Positions 443 through 58,042 of a stretch of 64,000 bases of DNA are shown here, piece by piece. The stretch covers positions 130,514 to 194,513 of the forward strand of contig JAJQBX010000021.1 in the NCBI GenBank assembly GCA_021203065.1, given 5' to 3'. Position 1 is the stretch's first letter. Each line of letters starts with the position of its first letter. Below the pieces are notes generated by a model. It was given only the letters and a program-made list of their open reading frames with translations, had not been told where the DNA came from and made no database searches. Position numbers and translations under genes: made by a program. This DNA comes from Oscillospiraceae bacterium. Its GTDB lineage: Bacteria > Bacillota > Clostridia > Oscillospirales > Ruminococcaceae.

Positions 443-448
443 TGGTAC

Positions 449-680
449 GTGGTTATGGAAGGGCTAAACAAGTCTTTACCACTTTTAACTATGCGGGGGG
501 GTACAACCTCTGGTGGATAAATTTTTCAGGGAATTTTTTCCTGAAAACTCAGTCCAGTCGGCACCATGTACCCATACCAAACCTCCGACACTATTTTAAC
601 AAAGTGCATCGGAGGCATTTTTATACCAAGTTGCCAAAGCAACCACTACCTCCTTTGCGAAATCTAAGGAGGAATTTTTT
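449..680 (+). promoter_or_regulatory. Long structured 5' leader with terminator-like hairpin and SD-sequestering hairpin (candidate cis-regulatory RNA)
   Basis: About 230 nt lie between the promoter and the ATG at 681. G-run stem GGGUAC (499-504) pairs with GUACCC (568-573). CCUCCGA (582-588) pairs with UCGGAGG (609-615) and is followed by CAUUUUUA. CCUCCUU (649-655) pairs with the SD AAGGAGG (666-672). A paralogous leader lies at 55998-56157. Confidence 0.5.
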
Positions 681-7704: not shown

Positions 7705-10302
7705 ATGAAAAAACGCATCTTTACAACCCTTATTAACCTATGCATGGCAATAGCCCTTGTAGCGGCACTGCTCCCTGCCCTGAGCGTGACGACCAATGCC
7801 GAAATCACCTATACATGGGAGATTCCAATCGAGATTACTGTCACAAATGGCGGCACTACTGATGCGTCTGCTATCAGTTTTGGTCTTCTGCTTTATGATC
7901 CGAGCGGCAGTGAAATAGACATAGCAGGTTTTAAAGGAGAGTATCTTGAGAATTCTCAATATGTCTATACTACCGGTCACGGAACATACAATGCAACCCT
8001 CAGATTTCAAGGCGGAGACCAACTTAAGCAGCATCTGGCTGATGGATTTATAGTGTGTCTCAATGACATCGGAGTTGATGGATGGGAGCATAACGATGTG
8101 GAATATGAGGTGGTCTCTTGCGAGTTTGATGAGGAAACCGGTGAGATGACTGAAATCTCTATAATATCTGTCAACACTGGCTATAGTGTTAATACCGCAG
8201 CATTTGAATGTGAATACACTGGCTATTACCTGCGGTTTGAGACAAATGGCGGAAGCACAATGGAATCTGTGGCTGTTGCAGACGGAACTACAGTCGACCT
8301 TTCCGGCTACACCCCGACCCGTGCTGGCTACACCTTCACCGGTTGGTATTCTGACAGTGAGCTTACTATTAAAGTCAGTAGTGTTACCTTGGATGCTACG
8401 GATGAATTCGTCTATGCCGGATGGGAGAGATATGTCACTGTCGGCGCAGTAGCCCTCGCAGACGGTCAGTACACCACCAACGGCACAGACATCAATGACG
8501 GCGAGCCCACCGGCACAAGCTATGCTTATTATTCTGATGGGGTGCTGACGCTCAGCGGTTATGATATTACAACGACCGACACATATGGCATTTACAATGA
8601 CGGTGATTTAGAGATAGTATTGGTTGGCGAGAACAGCGTCACGTCAAGTAGTGAGGGCATCTATGTAAGCGGAGATCTGACCATAAGCGGCACAGGAAGC
8701 CTGAGCGTGACAGTTGACAACGATAATGGTGATGCCTATGGAATTGTTTCTGCTGGCGGCATTATCGAAATTTCAGAATGTACGGTAAATGTAAACGCTA
8801 CGAGTAGCTACAACAGTGCTTATGCAATCTGTGCCCAAAAATACGATATTGCAATTGAAGCTGACAGCACTGTAACCGCCACGGCAACTGGTGGTGCCTA
8901 TGCTTATGGCATCTATGCGGATGATTACGTTTTAATTACCGGGAGCAAAGTAACCGTTTCTGCTGAGAGTGACGGTTTTGAGGCTTGCGCTATTTGTGCG
9001 GATGATTATAGTATTGAAATACAGGGCGGCAGTGAGGTTGAGGCGACTGTCAAAGGCGAGTTTTTGTTTGGTGAAGCACTATCAGCTCAAGATGTGATTA
9101 GTGGCGAAATTACAATATCCGGAACTGGAACCAAGTTAACGGCTACAACGACCTCGACTTCCACAGATCGTTCTGAAGCTTACGCAATCTTATCAGCGTT
9201 TGGCACTATTACAATAGAAGACGGTTGCGAGGTTATAGCCACGGTAACAACTGTTGCTGGTAGCGGTAATACTACTGACGCAATATATTCGAGCATTACA
9301 ATCAGCGACAGCTCCTTGACAGTGACAGCTGACGGTGATTATGCCACAGCAATTGGTGATACATCTGAAGACTTTTCAATTTCCAACAGCAATGTCAAGG
9401 CTTTCGCCAGCGGTGCTTCTGCAATTGCTATCGAAAGCTATGGGCGGCTTACAATAACGGGAAGTGAAGTTACAGCAACAGCCGAGGGTACTGCCTTAGG
9501 CTATGGTATTTTTATTTTGGGTAATCTTTCAATAACATCCAGTGAAGTTGAAGTCACTGGCAAGGGTGATGATGAGTATGCCATCTGTATTATTGATGGA
9601 GATAATGGCGGTCTTATAATTTCCGACAGCGAGGTCGTCGCCGACGGAGGCATCAATCTGATGACAGACGGTCCGGTAATCGCCATCCCTGCAACCGATG
9701 GTTCTATGAAGATTACTATGACTAATGATACGGACAACGTTATTTTCACTATTGATGAGCTTACGGTGATTGACACGTATGGGTATACCTATGTAAAGGT
9801 TGAGGCGCATGAGCATGCATATGATTATGACAATATCATCTGGGATTGGACGGATTATGAGAATGTTACGGCTACGGTTACCTGTACTGATTCCGGCTTT
9901 GAGCATTCCAAGACCGTTACGGCTACGGTGACTTCGGTCGCTTCTGGCAGTACGGTGACTTATACGGCTACGGCAGAGTTTGACGGCAAAACCTACACCG
10001 CTACTGCCACTGTCGCCTCCACCACCTCCTCAACCCAGTCAACCGCCTCCGCCAATTATTCCGCCGTCCGTGAAGCGATAGCCAAGGCGAATGCCCTGAA
10101 TCCTGACGATTATGAGGACTTCTCAGCAGTCACGAGGGCAATCACCAATGTCAACTGGTCACTCGCCTTGGCAAACCAGAGCGCAGTAAACTCGATGGCA
10201 GCTGCCATCAACGAGGCGATCGCCAATCTCGTCCCCGTATCTTCGGTGGAAGTAGTAGTTGATGAGCCGGTCGAGGGAACAGATTTGGAAGTTGAGGAGT
10301 AA
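7705..10302 (+). CDS. Large secreted surface protein: Listeria-Bacteroides (Flg_new-type) repeat, long beta-helix-like T/S/G repeats, conserved C-terminal module
   Basis: Signal peptide present. YYLRFETNGGSTMESVAVADGTTVDLSGYTPTRAGYTFTGWYSD...YAGW matches the Flg_new-type repeat. The C-terminal ~150 aa are shared with 56158..57807, including a FIVAR-like helical segment YSAVREAIAKANALNPDDYEDFS. Confidence 0.8.
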   Translation: MKKRIFTTLINLCMAIALVAALLPALSVTTNAEITYTWEIPIEITVTNGGTTDASAISFGLLLYDPSGSEIDIAGFKGEYLENSQYVYTTGHGTYNATLRFQGGDQLKQHLADGFIVCLNDIGVDGWEHNDVEYEVVSCEFDEETGEMTEISIISVNTGYSVNTAAFECEYTGYYLRFETNGGSTMESVAVADGTTVDLSGYTPTRAGYTFTGWYSDSELTIKVSSVTLDATDEFVYAGWERYVTVGAVALADGQYTTNGTDINDGEPTGTSYAYYSDGVLTLSGYDITTTDTYGIYNDGDLEIVLVGENSVTSSSEGIYVSGDLTISGTGSLSVTVDNDNGDAYGIVSAGGIIEISECTVNVNATSSYNSAYAICAQKYDIAIEADSTVTATATGGAYAYGIYADDYVLITGSKVTVSAESDGFEACAICADDYSIEIQGGSEVEATVKGEFLFGEALSAQDVISGEITISGTGTKLTATTTSTSTDRSEAYAILSAFGTITIEDGCEVIATVTTVAGSGNTTDAIYSSITISDSSLTVTADGDYATAIGDTSEDFSISNSNVKAFASGASAIAIESYGRLTITGSEVTATAEGTALGYGIFILGNLSITSSEVEVTGKGDDEYAICIIDGDNGGLIISDSEVVADGGINLMTDGPVIAIPATDGSMKITMTNDTDNVIFTIDELTVIDTYGYTYVKVEAHEHAYDYDNIIWDWTDYENVTATVTCTDSGFEHSKTVTATVTSVASGSTVTYTATAEFDGKTYTATATVASTTSSTQSTASANYSAVREAIAKANALNPDDYEDFSAVTRAITNVNWSLALANQSAVNSMAAAINEAIANLVPVSSVEVVVDEPVEGTDLEVEE

Positions 10303-55496: not shown

Positions 55497-55990
55497 ATGG
55501 ACAACTCAACTCTCTGTTACATCGAAAAAGACGGCTCATACCTCATGATGCACCGAGTCAAAAAGCAAAACGACCTCAACCACGACAAGTGGATTGGCAT
55601 CGGCGGGCATTTCGAGCAGGGCGAGTCGCCCTATGACTGCGTCAGGCGTGAAGCTTTCGAGGAGACCGGCGTCACTCTCATAAATCCCCGCTACCGTGGC
55701 ATCGTGACTTTCGTCACTGACGACACCTACACCGAGCAGATGCACTTATTTACATGCACCGAATACGCAGGAGACCTGACCCTCGACTGCAATGAGGGCG
55801 ACCTCGAATGGGTCAGAAAGTCAGAAATAAAAAACCTCCCCATCTGGGAGGGGATAAGATATTCTTTGAGCTTTTGGATAGGGGAGAGCCGTTCTTTTCG
55901 TTGAAATTGGTGTATGAAAATGACGATTTAAAAGAAATTGTTCTGAATGGCGAGAAACCCCTTGACAACCACCCACAGTTTATGTTATAA
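55497..55990 (+). pseudogene. NUDIX hydrolase (MutT/8-oxo-dGTPase-like) with an apparent 1-nt frameshift in a G run
   Basis: Nudix box GIGGHFEQGESPYDCVRREAFEETGV. The frame of 55473..55904 reads ...LPIWEG and then non-homologous residues. The shifted frame (track ORF 55808..55990) continues GDKIFFELLDRGEPFFSLKLVYENDDLKEIVLNGE, the normal family C-terminus. The shift lies at GGGG 55850-55853. Confidence 0.55.
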
Positions 55991-55991
55991 T
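55962..55991 (+). promoter_or_regulatory. Sigma-A promoter TTGACA-18-TATAAT, paralogous to the promoter at 414
   Basis: ccCTTGACAACCaCCCAC...TATAAT. TTGACA at 55962-55967 and TATAAT at 55986-55991. Confidence 0.65.
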
Positions 55992-55997
55992 TAGATG

Positions 55998-56157
55998 AGG
56001 GAATTAAAATAAGTACTTGCTTATAATTTGATTCCCAAAAAGCCCAATTTGCGTGGGGGGTAGCGCACTTCGTGCGCATACCCATACAAACCTCCATACC
56101 GAAAGTATAGGAGGTTACATCTATATAGCCTCCTGAGAAAAACAAGGAGGATTTTTT
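55998..56157 (+). promoter_or_regulatory. Structured 5' leader paralogous to 449-680, with an SD-sequestering hairpin
   Basis: GCGUGGGGGGUA[GCGCAC-uucg-UGCGC]AUACCC. Shared CCCAUACAAACCUCC. ACCUCC (56090-56095) pairs with GGAGGU (56110-56115). CCUCCU (56129-56134) pairs with the SD AGGAGG (56145-56150). Confidence 0.5.
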
Positions 56158-57807
56158 ATGAAGAAATTATTGGCATTGTTTTTATCGGTCGTGTTAGTCA
56201 TGACGCTCATTCCGTCAACCGTGTTTGCGACTGGACAGGCGAGTGGGACTGGGACTGCCATTTCCGGACAGCTCAATTTATCAAGCCTCACCGAAAGTGA
56301 CAGCGACGACGGTTGGAGCTGGGATGCGGATTCCAAAACTTTTACGCTTACCAATCTGACGATTACTAATGATGGCAATTATAGAAGCGCAATTGTATTG
56401 CCCGCTGATGCAGATGGTGGTATGATTACTATTGTTTTGGAGGGAGATAACTATATTTCCGACTTCGATCAGACGTCCGGAAGAGCCTTTGTTGTTGGCT
56501 CCGACACTAATGCCAGTTCCAGCGGTGATCTGACGCTGACTGGTGATGGCTCACTTACAATTTCAGATTGTGGATGGGTTCAAAATGGCTCTTTCACGAA
56601 TGTGATAATAGATAATACAACTATTACTGCTGAAACCGTCAGCGGTTGGACGGTTGGCGGAACTCTCACCATACAGGATTCTGACGTAACTATCAATGCC
56701 ACCGGAACTTACAATGCTCTTTATGCGGTAGAAAGTATTATAATCATTGACAGTACAGTAACTGCTTCCGCTCCCAACAGCAGTAATGCTGTAATTGCAA
56801 CACAGAACACAAGAAGCTCCGGCACTACTGAGGCTGATTTTGTCATCGAAAACAGCACCATCATTATAAGTGGTGGTTTGGGATGGGGACTTTGGTGTAG
56901 TTCCTACTACGGAACGTCATCTATGACCATCACGGATTCTGATATTACTATAGCCAGTGCTGCCGGAGCATACTCCGCCGATTCTCTTACTTTGATTGGC
57001 GATGTAAACATCCTTACAACAAGCAACAGACAGGTTTTACTCAGCGATTCAATTGATACAGATGAGTTGGCAGAGGATGCGGTTATTCAGGGCTATTCCC
57101 GTCAGGGGAACGACATGTTCTATTTCACCGATTATACTCTCACATCTGAGTTCTCAGTTATATCAGGTCGTACTCTGACCATCCCTGAGGGCGTAACGCT
57201 TACTTTGGCTGATGACGTCATACTGTCTTCGGTCGATGAGGGCGCAATCATTAATAATGGCACTATTATTGTACCGTGCACCAGCACGGGAGGCGTTGCT
57301 GATGGGTCACTGAGCGTGGGAAGCAATAGCGTCAGCATGGAGCACAGCTATGACGCCAGCAATATCGTCTGGGATTTCGACAACGCCACTGCCACATTTA
57401 CATGCTCAGGTTGCGGCGAAGTGCAGACTGTCGAAGCTACTGTAACCTCCGTAACCCAATCCAATGCAATAGTTTACACAGCAACCGTCGAGCTCGACGG
57501 CGTGACCTACACAGCCACCAAAACCGTGAGTACGAGCGTCCCGACTACCTCCGCAGACTACTCTGCCGTCCGTGAAGCAATAGCCAAGGCAAACGCCCTC
57601 AACCCCGACGACTATGAGGACTTCTCGGATGTCAAGAGGGCTATTACAAATGTCGACTGGACGCTGAGCAGTTCTAACCAGAGTGTCGTAAACTCAATGG
57701 CAGCCGCCATCAACGAAGCCATCGCCAACCTCGTCCCCGTTTCTGCGGAGGAAGTAGTAGTCGATGAGCCAATCGAGGGAACAGACACAGAAGTTGAAGC
57801 TGACTGA
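56158..57807 (+). CDS. Secreted beta-helix-like surface protein, paralog of 7705..10302 (shared C-terminal module)
   Basis: Signal peptide MKKLLALFLSVVLVMTLIPSTVFA. T/S/G-rich repeats. The C-terminal 83 aa match 69/83 residues of the 7705 protein by hand count. Confidence 0.8.
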   Translation: MKKLLALFLSVVLVMTLIPSTVFATGQASGTGTAISGQLNLSSLTESDSDDGWSWDADSKTFTLTNLTITNDGNYRSAIVLPADADGGMITIVLEGDNYISDFDQTSGRAFVVGSDTNASSSGDLTLTGDGSLTISDCGWVQNGSFTNVIIDNTTITAETVSGWTVGGTLTIQDSDVTINATGTYNALYAVESIIIIDSTVTASAPNSSNAVIATQNTRSSGTTEADFVIENSTIIISGGLGWGLWCSSYYGTSSMTITDSDITIASAAGAYSADSLTLIGDVNILTTSNRQVLLSDSIDTDELAEDAVIQGYSRQGNDMFYFTDYTLTSEFSVISGRTLTIPEGVTLTLADDVILSSVDEGAIINNGTIIVPCTSTGGVADGSLSVGSNSVSMEHSYDASNIVWDFDNATATFTCSGCGEVQTVEATVTSVTQSNAIVYTATVELDGVTYTATKTVSTSVPTTSADYSAVREAIAKANALNPDDYEDFSDVKRAITNVDWTLSSSNQSVVNSMAAAINEAIANLVPVSAEEVVVDEPIEGTDTEVEAD

Positions 57808-57906: not shown

Positions 57907-58042
57907 ATTTTGTGCATTTTCAACAATTTTCGCTTTGTTCGGTGTTTCATTTTGTACTTGCGGGGGGGTAACGGTGTGTTATAATGTAGGTGAAATTTAG
58001 TAAAAATTTCGTCTTATTTTATACATTTGAGGTGTGGGATAT

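Follow-up and report, generated by a model that had tools for sequence, protein, structure and literature searches.

Multi-hairpin attenuators are well described in bacteria: the trp and pyr leaders combine an anti-antiterminator, an antiterminator and a terminator, and in Escherichia coli thiM the corresponding parts are a Shine-Dalgarno (SD) sequence, an anti-SD and an anti-anti-SD. Here we describe a leader RNA, the G-tract leader, that is present twice in a stretch of 64,000 nucleotides (nt) from an Oscillospiraceae bacterium (the window; positions 130,514 to 194,513 of contig JAJQBX010000021.1 in assembly GCA_021203065.1), once in front of a secreted-protein gene at 681 (copy 1) and once in front of a paralogous gene at 56158 (copy 2), the elements of both copies lying on the forward (+) strand. 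The leader can be described as a row of five alternately complementary segments, which in our model would act as a relay: a G-tract (segment 0), CCUCC(1), GGAGG(2), CCUCC(3) and the GGAGG of the SD itself (segment 4). As in the trp, pyr and thiM leaders, each segment can pair with either of its neighbours, the default state is predicted to be OFF, and the first helix to form during transcription would decide the fate of a terminator and of an SD-sequestering hairpin. In contrast to those leaders, the G-tract leader lacks a leader peptide, a known protein site and a recognisable aptamer, its five segments are built from only two words (G-run/GGAGG and CCUCC), the initiating segment is a homopolymeric G-tract, and in each of the seven richest species it is repeated about 8-19 times in the genome, in front of genes for structural surface proteins.

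Other described systems share single traits with it. In Clostridia, the regulons of the cyclic di-GMP (c-di-GMP) riboswitches of classes I and II comprise surface proteins, pili and adhesins, and here too one leader type, with a platform of putative terminator type, precedes many surface or adhesin genes; the G-tract leader, however, matches neither RF01051 nor RF01786 and has no conserved ligand pocket. Homopolymer phase variation in promoter spacers is known from the poly-C/G tracts of Neisseria opc and porA, and Clostridioides difficile cwpV carries a phase-variable leader terminator. These systems likewise concern surface-protein genes, with a poly-G tract of variable length or, in cwpV, with ON/OFF control by a terminator in the 5' untranslated region (UTR). 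In opc and porA the tract alters the spacing of a promoter; the G-tract considered here is transcribed as part of the leader, where it would work by RNA pairing, and unlike at cwpV no invertible repeats were found at the leader. Finally, RNA thermometers (ROSE, fourU) pair the SD with an upstream CCUCC or a U-rich anti-SD, and STAB-SD and other 5' stabiliser leaders resemble ours in their GGAGG words and 5' hairpin. The SD-sequestering hairpin of the G-tract leader, P4, has a mean predicted energy of -13.4 kcal/mol by itself and is thus far more stable than the melting type, and since the internal GGAGG(2) is sequestered, this word cannot serve as a simple STAB-SD-like stabiliser that binds ribosomes.

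The G-tract leader is a new multi-copy RNA family, larger than the two paralogues of the window. The sequence-only reading from which this work started had been unable to assign it to any of the riboswitch classes that it considered, and a covariance-model check against Rfam agrees: cmscan with Rfam 15, whose families include the c-di-GMP-I and -II, SAM, TPP, cobalamin, ZTP, T-box, preQ1 and guanidine RNAs, returned no match in the 64-kilobase window at the gathering threshold, and at E-values up to 10 both leaders gave only noise, at 11-17 bits against snoRNA, U7 and similar models. RF01786 (c-di-GMP-II) was not found in the window's own genome (G000; 2.36 Mb in 36 contigs), RF01051 (c-di-GMP-I) occurs in one of the 41 genomes of the genus, which is not the window's own, and full-text literature searches did not find a description of the element. 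A covariance model, R1, built from 11 compact copies gave about 100 matches in 13 of the 41 genomes of one uncultured Oscillospirales genus, with 8-19 matches each in seven species. The single matches in two of these 13 genomes (L083 and L084) are ordinary terminators, and real copies are present in 11 of the 41 species. The window's own genome holds about 17 real copies, further ones having been located there by BLAST and pattern searches. Outside the genus, R1 found no true copy in the 149 other genera of the same family that were searched, its lone match (in G031) being a plain terminator, and the strict core pattern TACCCATAC..AAACCTCC gave only chance matches in 400 family genomes, at a rate comparable to that of a reversed-pattern control; this pattern is too strict and overlooks the majority of real copies even where the window itself comes from. 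Within the one genus the leader takes three forms, namely minimal (with two hairpins), compact and long. At the copy 1 locus, independent assemblies (L160 and L161; Logan contigs of SRR15221328 and SRR15221332, in which the encoded proteins are identical) break exactly at the gene start, presumably because the leader is a multi-copy repeat, and since contigs break at the leader, its copy numbers in metagenome-assembled genomes (MAGs) are probably underestimates.

All the elements that had been claimed for copy 1 reappeared at their positions when the sequence was re-read. Its promoter, TTGACA-17-TATAAT (414-442), matches the consensus at 12 of 12 positions and carries a C-run, CCTCCCCAC, within its spacer. 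The transcript has a 5' hairpin found by folding, GUGGU...ACCAC (449-453 with 478-482), which is plausibly a 5' stabiliser and is specific to the subfamily, other subfamilies having a different 5' hairpin. Then comes the G-run GCGGGGGGGUAC (493-504), in which C494 and the 7-G tract at 495-501 constitute element 0 (494-501). The 5' Gs of this tract can pair with CCUCC(1), giving a helix that we call P0, and its 3' GGG together with UAC (499-504) pairs with GUACCC (568-573), giving P1. Enclosed by P1 is the variable insert hairpin P2 (505-567), which contains UUUUCAGG...CCUGAAAA. An A/C-rich stretch, CCCAUACCAAACCUCC (571-586), ends in CCUCC and includes the A-rich, G-poor linker AUACCAAA (574-581), which would become a bulge once P0 forms. 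P3 (582-623 with its U-tract) joins CCUCC(1) at 582-586 and G587 to GGAGG(2) at 611-615, its full arms being CCUCCGA (582-588) and UCGGAGG (609-615), and the U-tract CAUUUUUA (616-623) lies directly 3' of it. In P4 (649-680) the anti-SD CCUCCUU (649-655) pairs with the SD AAGGAGG (666-672), and the conserved run AAUUUUUU (673-680) fills the space between the SD and the ATG at 681.

The same architecture had been claimed upstream of 56158, and copy 2 (55962-56160) does share the plan of copy 1. Its promoter, TTGACA-18-TATAAT with a TG extension, occupies 55962-55991, and its leader core (56054-56160), which belongs to the compact class, scores 107 bits against R1. U56054 precedes a tract of six Gs (56055-56060), P1/P2 is a short UUCG hairpin that replaces the 60-nt insert of copy 1, and the linker comes next. 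CCUCC(1) at 56091-56095 is followed by A56096, and GGAGG(2) at 56110-56114, CCUCC(3) at 56129-56133, the SD at 56146-56150 and the ATG at 56158 complete the series. Compared with dinucleotide shuffles, the predicted fold of the leader has a z of -5.1 in copy 1 and -7.7 in copy 2, and in neither case was any of 200 shuffles as stable. A leader peptide was considered for copy 1 and rejected, as the AUG that overlaps the G-tract occurs only in this copy, has no SD and is not conserved.

Comparison among the copies supports the helices in part. Alignment to R1 comprised 76 matches, of which 74 are real, and 72 distinct sequences were scored. Base-paired cells amounted to 96.3% as against 84.2% in column shuffles (0 of 500 shuffles were as good) and dropped to 44-65% in slid registers, and double-sided changes were seen in 15 of the 21 modelled pairs. 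The G-tract hairpin (upper P1 plus P2) covaries at all ten of its modelled pairs, with changes on both sides, and compensatory changes, which the sequence-only reading had noted for copy 2, do occur in P1/P2. P2 itself ranges from a cUUCGg-type tetraloop hairpin to branched inserts of 60 nt, the inserts spanning 15-65 nt. The core of P3, CCUCC(1):GGAGG(2), with GGGGG in 16 sequences, and the core of P4, CCUCC(3):SD, are almost invariant.

The alternation of CCUCC(1), GGAGG(2), CCUCC(3) and the SD, originally proposed as a four-element switch, is real, but there is a fifth element, the 5' half of the G-run, which can pair with CCUCC(1). Of the 5-8 Gs in a tract, only the last three take part in P1. 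Between the base that precedes the tract and the one that follows CCUCC(1), the pair is C:G in 47, U:A in 19 and U:G in 8 copies, with a mismatch in 0 of 74; the apparent C:A of one copy (L121) is a parsing artefact, the true CCUCC(1) there preceding a G. In 50 distinct composite constructs (6 nt, G5, spacer, CCUCC, 6 nt), used to remove length variation, this flanking pair is CG in 28, UA in 16, UG in 6 and unpaired in none, and P0 reaches a covariation score of 0.136 against 0.093 in shuffles (0/500) and at most 0.047 in slid registers. On a tree computed with both positions masked, the 5' base changes nine times and the 3' base five times; U:A needs at least five origins, A occurs only on a U background, and U:G intermediates are present. 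We regard this comparative evidence that the helix [N-G1-5]:[CCUCC(1)-N'] exists as good, though not conclusive. P0 and P3 are mutually exclusive, and in tracts of fewer than 8 Gs P0 also overlaps in part with the GGG:CCC base of P1; P0 is thereby the upstream helix, sequestering the 5' strand of P3, that is expected of an attenuator. The junction made by P0 is a one-sided bulge of 7-9 nt in 66 of 73 copies (range 5-12 nt), consisting of 62% A and 3% G, which starts with A, ends with AA and has a variable interior.

We favour, with moderate confidence, a model in which the G-tract leader is a default-OFF attenuator coupled to an SD-sequestering relay and is turned ON by stabilisation of P0. 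That it regulates at all we infer, as we do its switching, its termination and its trigger. In the ground state, the last three Gs of the tract would close P1/P2, segments 1 and 2 would be paired as P3, and segment 3 would be paired with the SD as P4, which would block ribosome binding and which has a U-run of its own behind it. In the alternative state, the 5' portion of the G-tract, joined by the base in front of it, would capture CCUCC(1) and the base after it, forming P0 first during transcription, and in the default path P0 would later be displaced by P3. Where P0 persisted, segment 2 would pair with segment 3 instead, both hairpins would be lost and the SD would be exposed. Given this order of events, expression would be set by the survival time of P0 against invasion by P3. 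As to the trigger, we speculate that a trans-acting factor of a surface and secreted regulon of about 10-20 genes might bind the P0/P1 junction and its A-rich 8-nt bulge, while the length of the G-tract (5-8 G) might set the threshold of each gene.

Folding predictions are consistent with such an order. In transcripts cut 4 nt after CCUCC(1), P0 has a mean predicted probability of 0.82 (0.97 in the nascent RNA of copy 1), and in full leaders the mean predicted probabilities are 0.04 for P0, 0.90 for P3 (0.87 in copy 1), 0.89 for P4 (0.99 in copy 1) and 0.06 for the 2:3 helix. In the dominant predicted fold the SD is paired, and an alternative fold frees it: folds in which P0 is forced are predicted to expose the SD and lie 4-13 kcal/mol above the minimum-energy fold. 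P3 alone has a mean energy of -11.7 kcal/mol. The 2:3 pairing postulated in the sequence-only reading proved to be more than its 5-base-pair core in most copies, since the helix averages -13.8 kcal/mol (-13.9 in compact and -13.7 in long leaders), as against -9.7 and -10.2 kcal/mol with shuffled flanks and spacer. The extension is made by lineage-specific complementary flanks, for example GUGC...GCAC or GUGCACC...GGGUAC. The equilibrium probability of the 2:3 helix is 0.3-0.7 in several compact copies and in L129, and in several compact copies the 2:3 fold is near-isoenergetic with the default fold. In the minimal copies of one genome (G404; L114, L123 and L061), a G-tract hairpin and a linker are followed by a CCUCC whose direct partner is the SD; a U-run and then the AUG come last, and on our model these copies show a 'G-tract versus anti-SD' logic in its simplest form.

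Of the terminator that had been suggested after the 1:2 hairpin, one part held and one part did not. At least 5 U in an 8-nt window after P3 were counted in 38 of the 40 long-class leaders, including copy 1, and P3 of the long class therefore looks like an intrinsic terminator; for most compact copies, including copy 2, the suggestion was not borne out. The same count of at least 5 U per 8 nt is reached after the SD in all 60 leaders, compared with 30% U over the leader as a whole. From the stem and the U-tract counts, P3 would thus appear to be terminator-like.

Several results weigh against the P0 relay. At equilibrium the OFF fold wins by the said 4-13 kcal/mol, and a stabiliser or a kinetic effect must therefore be assumed. 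Among the 20 compact leaders, an 8-nt window with at least 5 U after P3 occurs in only 7, and the best window of copy 2 has 4 U; moreover, a simple terminator scan calls no terminator in copy 1 or copy 2, because the loops of the leader exceed the 3-8-nt loop limit of the scan. The near-invariance of the P3 and P4 cores means that they give little covariation signal either way. The support for P0 consists of one covarying pair beside five invariant pairs, and a phylogenetically corrected sign test on independent pairs reaches p = 0.06-0.125, limited to these values by too few independent pairs. Finally, no candidate regulator was found.

In another explanation the leader would be constitutive and would not switch, a stable stack of hairpins (the 5' hairpin, P1/P2, P3 and P4) that protects abundant surface-protein mRNAs from RNases and tunes their translation, and it would be conserved because an expression cassette, with its promoter, leader and signal peptide, was duplicated. 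Known analogues are the 5' UTRs of S-layer genes, which are long and structured, and stabilisers of the STAB-SD type. The three sequential hairpins are indeed the thermodynamic ground state, the promoters are near consensus, a hairpin stands at the 5' end, and promoter, leader and signal peptide are common to many copies. We nevertheless consider a constitutive leader unlikely. A hairpin of -13 kcal/mol that buries the SD works against high expression, and a covarying P0 pair that is exclusive with P3 has no reason in a static structure. The 2:3 extension and the U-tract after P3 in the long leaders would stay unexplained, and the leader also stands before genes that are not homologous and whose signal peptides differ or are lacking.

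What might stabilise P0 has been approached through the regulators that the genomes encode. A NusG paralogue of the LoaP type was not found in the window's own genome, which has a single NusG only, nor was CsrA, and Hfq was not found in the 41 genomes of the genus. An ANTAR regulator was rejected, as such proteins occur in 35 of the 41 genus genomes regardless of the leader and the loops of P2 are tetraloops rather than paired hexaloops. The sequence-only reading had seen in the leader the expression platform of a riboswitch or attenuator; the structured, alternating leader is confirmed, but a metabolite riboswitch is not favoured. In such a riboswitch, P0, P1, P2 and the A-rich bulge would form an aptamer for a metabolite or ion, and the ligand would stabilise P0. 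The plan of the leader is aptamer-like, with a 5' domain that contains P0 and is followed by a terminator and an SD-sequestering hairpin, and since no known class matches, it would be an orphan. Yet its sole junction is the bulge of 5-12 nt with a variable interior, the conserved bases being the pairing words, while P2 and its loops are freely replaceable by inserts of 15-65 nt. Furthermore, the family is limited to a single genus, where 11 of 41 species have it, and was not found in the 149 other genera searched, and the genes behind it encode structural surface proteins with no common metabolism. Because of the bulge pattern, the replaceable P2 and the narrow distribution, a metabolite pocket is disfavoured; we hold a riboswitch of this kind to be very unlikely, and a metabolite ligand is less likely than a trans-acting factor.

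The G-tract itself suggests another way of control. It is always pure G, with 5 Gs in 1, 6 in 23, 7 in 31 and 8 in 5 copies, and the predicted net stabilisation of P0 in the nascent RNA amounts to -0.4, -1.6, -1.9, -3.7 and -6.2 kcal/mol for 4, 5, 6, 7 and 8 Gs, respectively, followed by a plateau. Among 13 pairs of leaders whose flanks are at least 93% identical, tract length differs in four, and the flanks (108 nt) carry an indel in two. Moreover, sigma-A-type promoters of other genes, many of which encode lipoproteins or secreted proteins, contain the word TGCGGGGGG(G)TA in their spacers, immediately next to the -10 element, as in TTGACA-N-GCGGGGGGTAAAAT. One such site lies in the window (57950-57995, with its G-tract at 57962-57968); further sites in the same genome (G000) are at C1:166100, C8:158673, C8:164422, C15:242333, C23:73880 and C32:12413. 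The spacer words may be classical poly-G phase-variation sites or an operator. Given the dependence of P0 energy on the tract, the variation of the tract and the promoter-spacer word, the tract could tune or phase-vary each gene, and we regard such tuning or phase variation as possible within our model.

In its strongest form, this idea would do without any trans-acting factor: length changes of the transcribed G-tract by slipped-strand mispairing would toggle each surface gene stochastically, slippage re-partitioning the Gs between P1 and P0 as antiterminator in about 8-19 genes independently. Since P1 (GGG:CCC) and P0 (G1-5:CCUCC) have Gs in common, each G would shift the antiterminator by about 2 kcal/mol. 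It speaks for such a mechanism that the tract is pure G although GGAGG would pair better with CCUCC, so that P0 always contains a G.U wobble, and that the stabilisation of P0 is steep over exactly the natural range of 5-8 Gs. The greater number of tract differences than of flank indels in near-identical leaders (4 against 2 of 13 pairs) and the same word abutting -10 elements, a classical site of homopolymer phase variation, point in the same direction. On the other side, tract length alters the predicted equilibrium exposure of the SD only slightly, the mean equilibrium probability of P0 being 0.00 at 6 Gs and 0.12 at 8 Gs; tracts of 6-7 Gs are short for efficient slippage, and where MAG assemblies differ in tract length, sequencing errors in homopolymers could be the cause. 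Pattern scans of metagenomes for tract polymorphism within populations gave no matches, and look-ups by exact protein led to contigs that break at the leader or to one independent assembly, the only one found, which is identical. We therefore consider stochastic toggling by slippage, in place of a trans-acting factor, an improbable account of the leader. Inversion of DNA was rejected as a switch as well, there being no conserved inverted repeats flanking the leader.

The genes behind the leader are of unrelated kinds. In copy 1, the putative regulated unit (681-2000) consists of the gene for a secreted protein of 390 amino acids (681-1853) and of an open reading frame (ORF) of 43 codons for an acidic peptide (1869-2000), and no Pfam domains were found in the proteins of copy 1 and copy 2. 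Almost all downstream ORFs open with a signal peptide of the type M-x-K-R/K-L-x-C-V..., but the proteins have unrelated architectures, such as beta-helix-like GGGVYV repeats, BspA-type leucine-rich repeats (PF13306), InlB B-repeats (PF18998) or Ig-like Big_2 domains, and some end in an NPTTG sortase-type anchor. The leader also precedes small peptides and a membrane protein. In three other species it directly precedes acidic peptides of 40-60 codons, MDKVYEEPKFVIIKF...GGGG... (MDKVYEEPKF...; L121, L117, L119 and L111), which the 43-codon ORF of the window (MTDYEPHVMEIVGF...) resembles. These acidic peptides look like precursors of ribosomally synthesised and post-translationally modified peptides (RiPPs) that belong to the regulon of the leader. 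Since the leader stands before non-homologous proteins and peptides, it is a portable module rather than the passenger of one paralogous gene family. Some surface-protein genes do without it: the one at 7705 in the window has a short plain leader.

Further observations were made on the promoters of the leader genes and on leader-like sites elsewhere in the same genome. Right 3' of the -35 element of leader-gene promoters lies a C-run box (CCCCCAC or CCACCCAC; 420-428 and 55968-55975 in the window), a second box is often found about 32 nt upstream, and in two copies the box forms an inverted repeat around the -35 element (CCCCCATGAA...TTCATGGGGG); it may be the site of a DNA-level regulator. 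About 45 kilobases upstream of the window, at G000 C32:85250-85600, another copy of the leader has the G-tract, the P3 terminator and a hairpin like P4 but no convincing ORF behind it; it could have decayed or be a small RNA in its own right. At G000 C2:17000-17340, a variant G-tract leader with a promoter and AUGCGGGGGGUA has two C-rich terminators, GCCCCGUA...UACGGGGC-U6 and CCCUCUGG...CUGGAGGG-U6, and its ORF, which starts with MKAVSMEELRTVDGGK, resembles a double-glycine leader peptide. The logic of a G-tract set against the C-rich strand of a terminator may thus be more general than model R1 detects. On the minus strand at G000 C2:97250-97560, the leader of a 1784-amino-acid protein with an NPTTG anchor shares the promoter and 5' hairpin of copy 2, and GCGGGCUACCCCCCGC replaces the G-tract module; the C-run UACCCCCCGCA of this leader is exactly complementary to the G-tract word, a match expected about once by chance in a genome of this size.

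If the G-tract leader is regulatory, one leader RNA would co-ordinate, or individually gate, most of the variable surface proteome in an abundant, uncultured group of gut Oscillospirales, in which it also precedes RiPP-like peptides. It would then represent a new and unusually simple design of RNA switch, in which two words are repeated five times, and the minimal, compact and long forms within one genus show how such relays grow. The natural variants, about 100 in number, and the single clean covarying pair make the family a handle on the effector and on possible effects of homopolymer length exerted via RNA structure. Should phase variation prove true, RNA folding would here be the source of contingency, in place of promoter spacing, reading frame or DNA inversion, and this mechanism would be paired, in one and the same genome, with classical promoter-spacer poly-G tracts.

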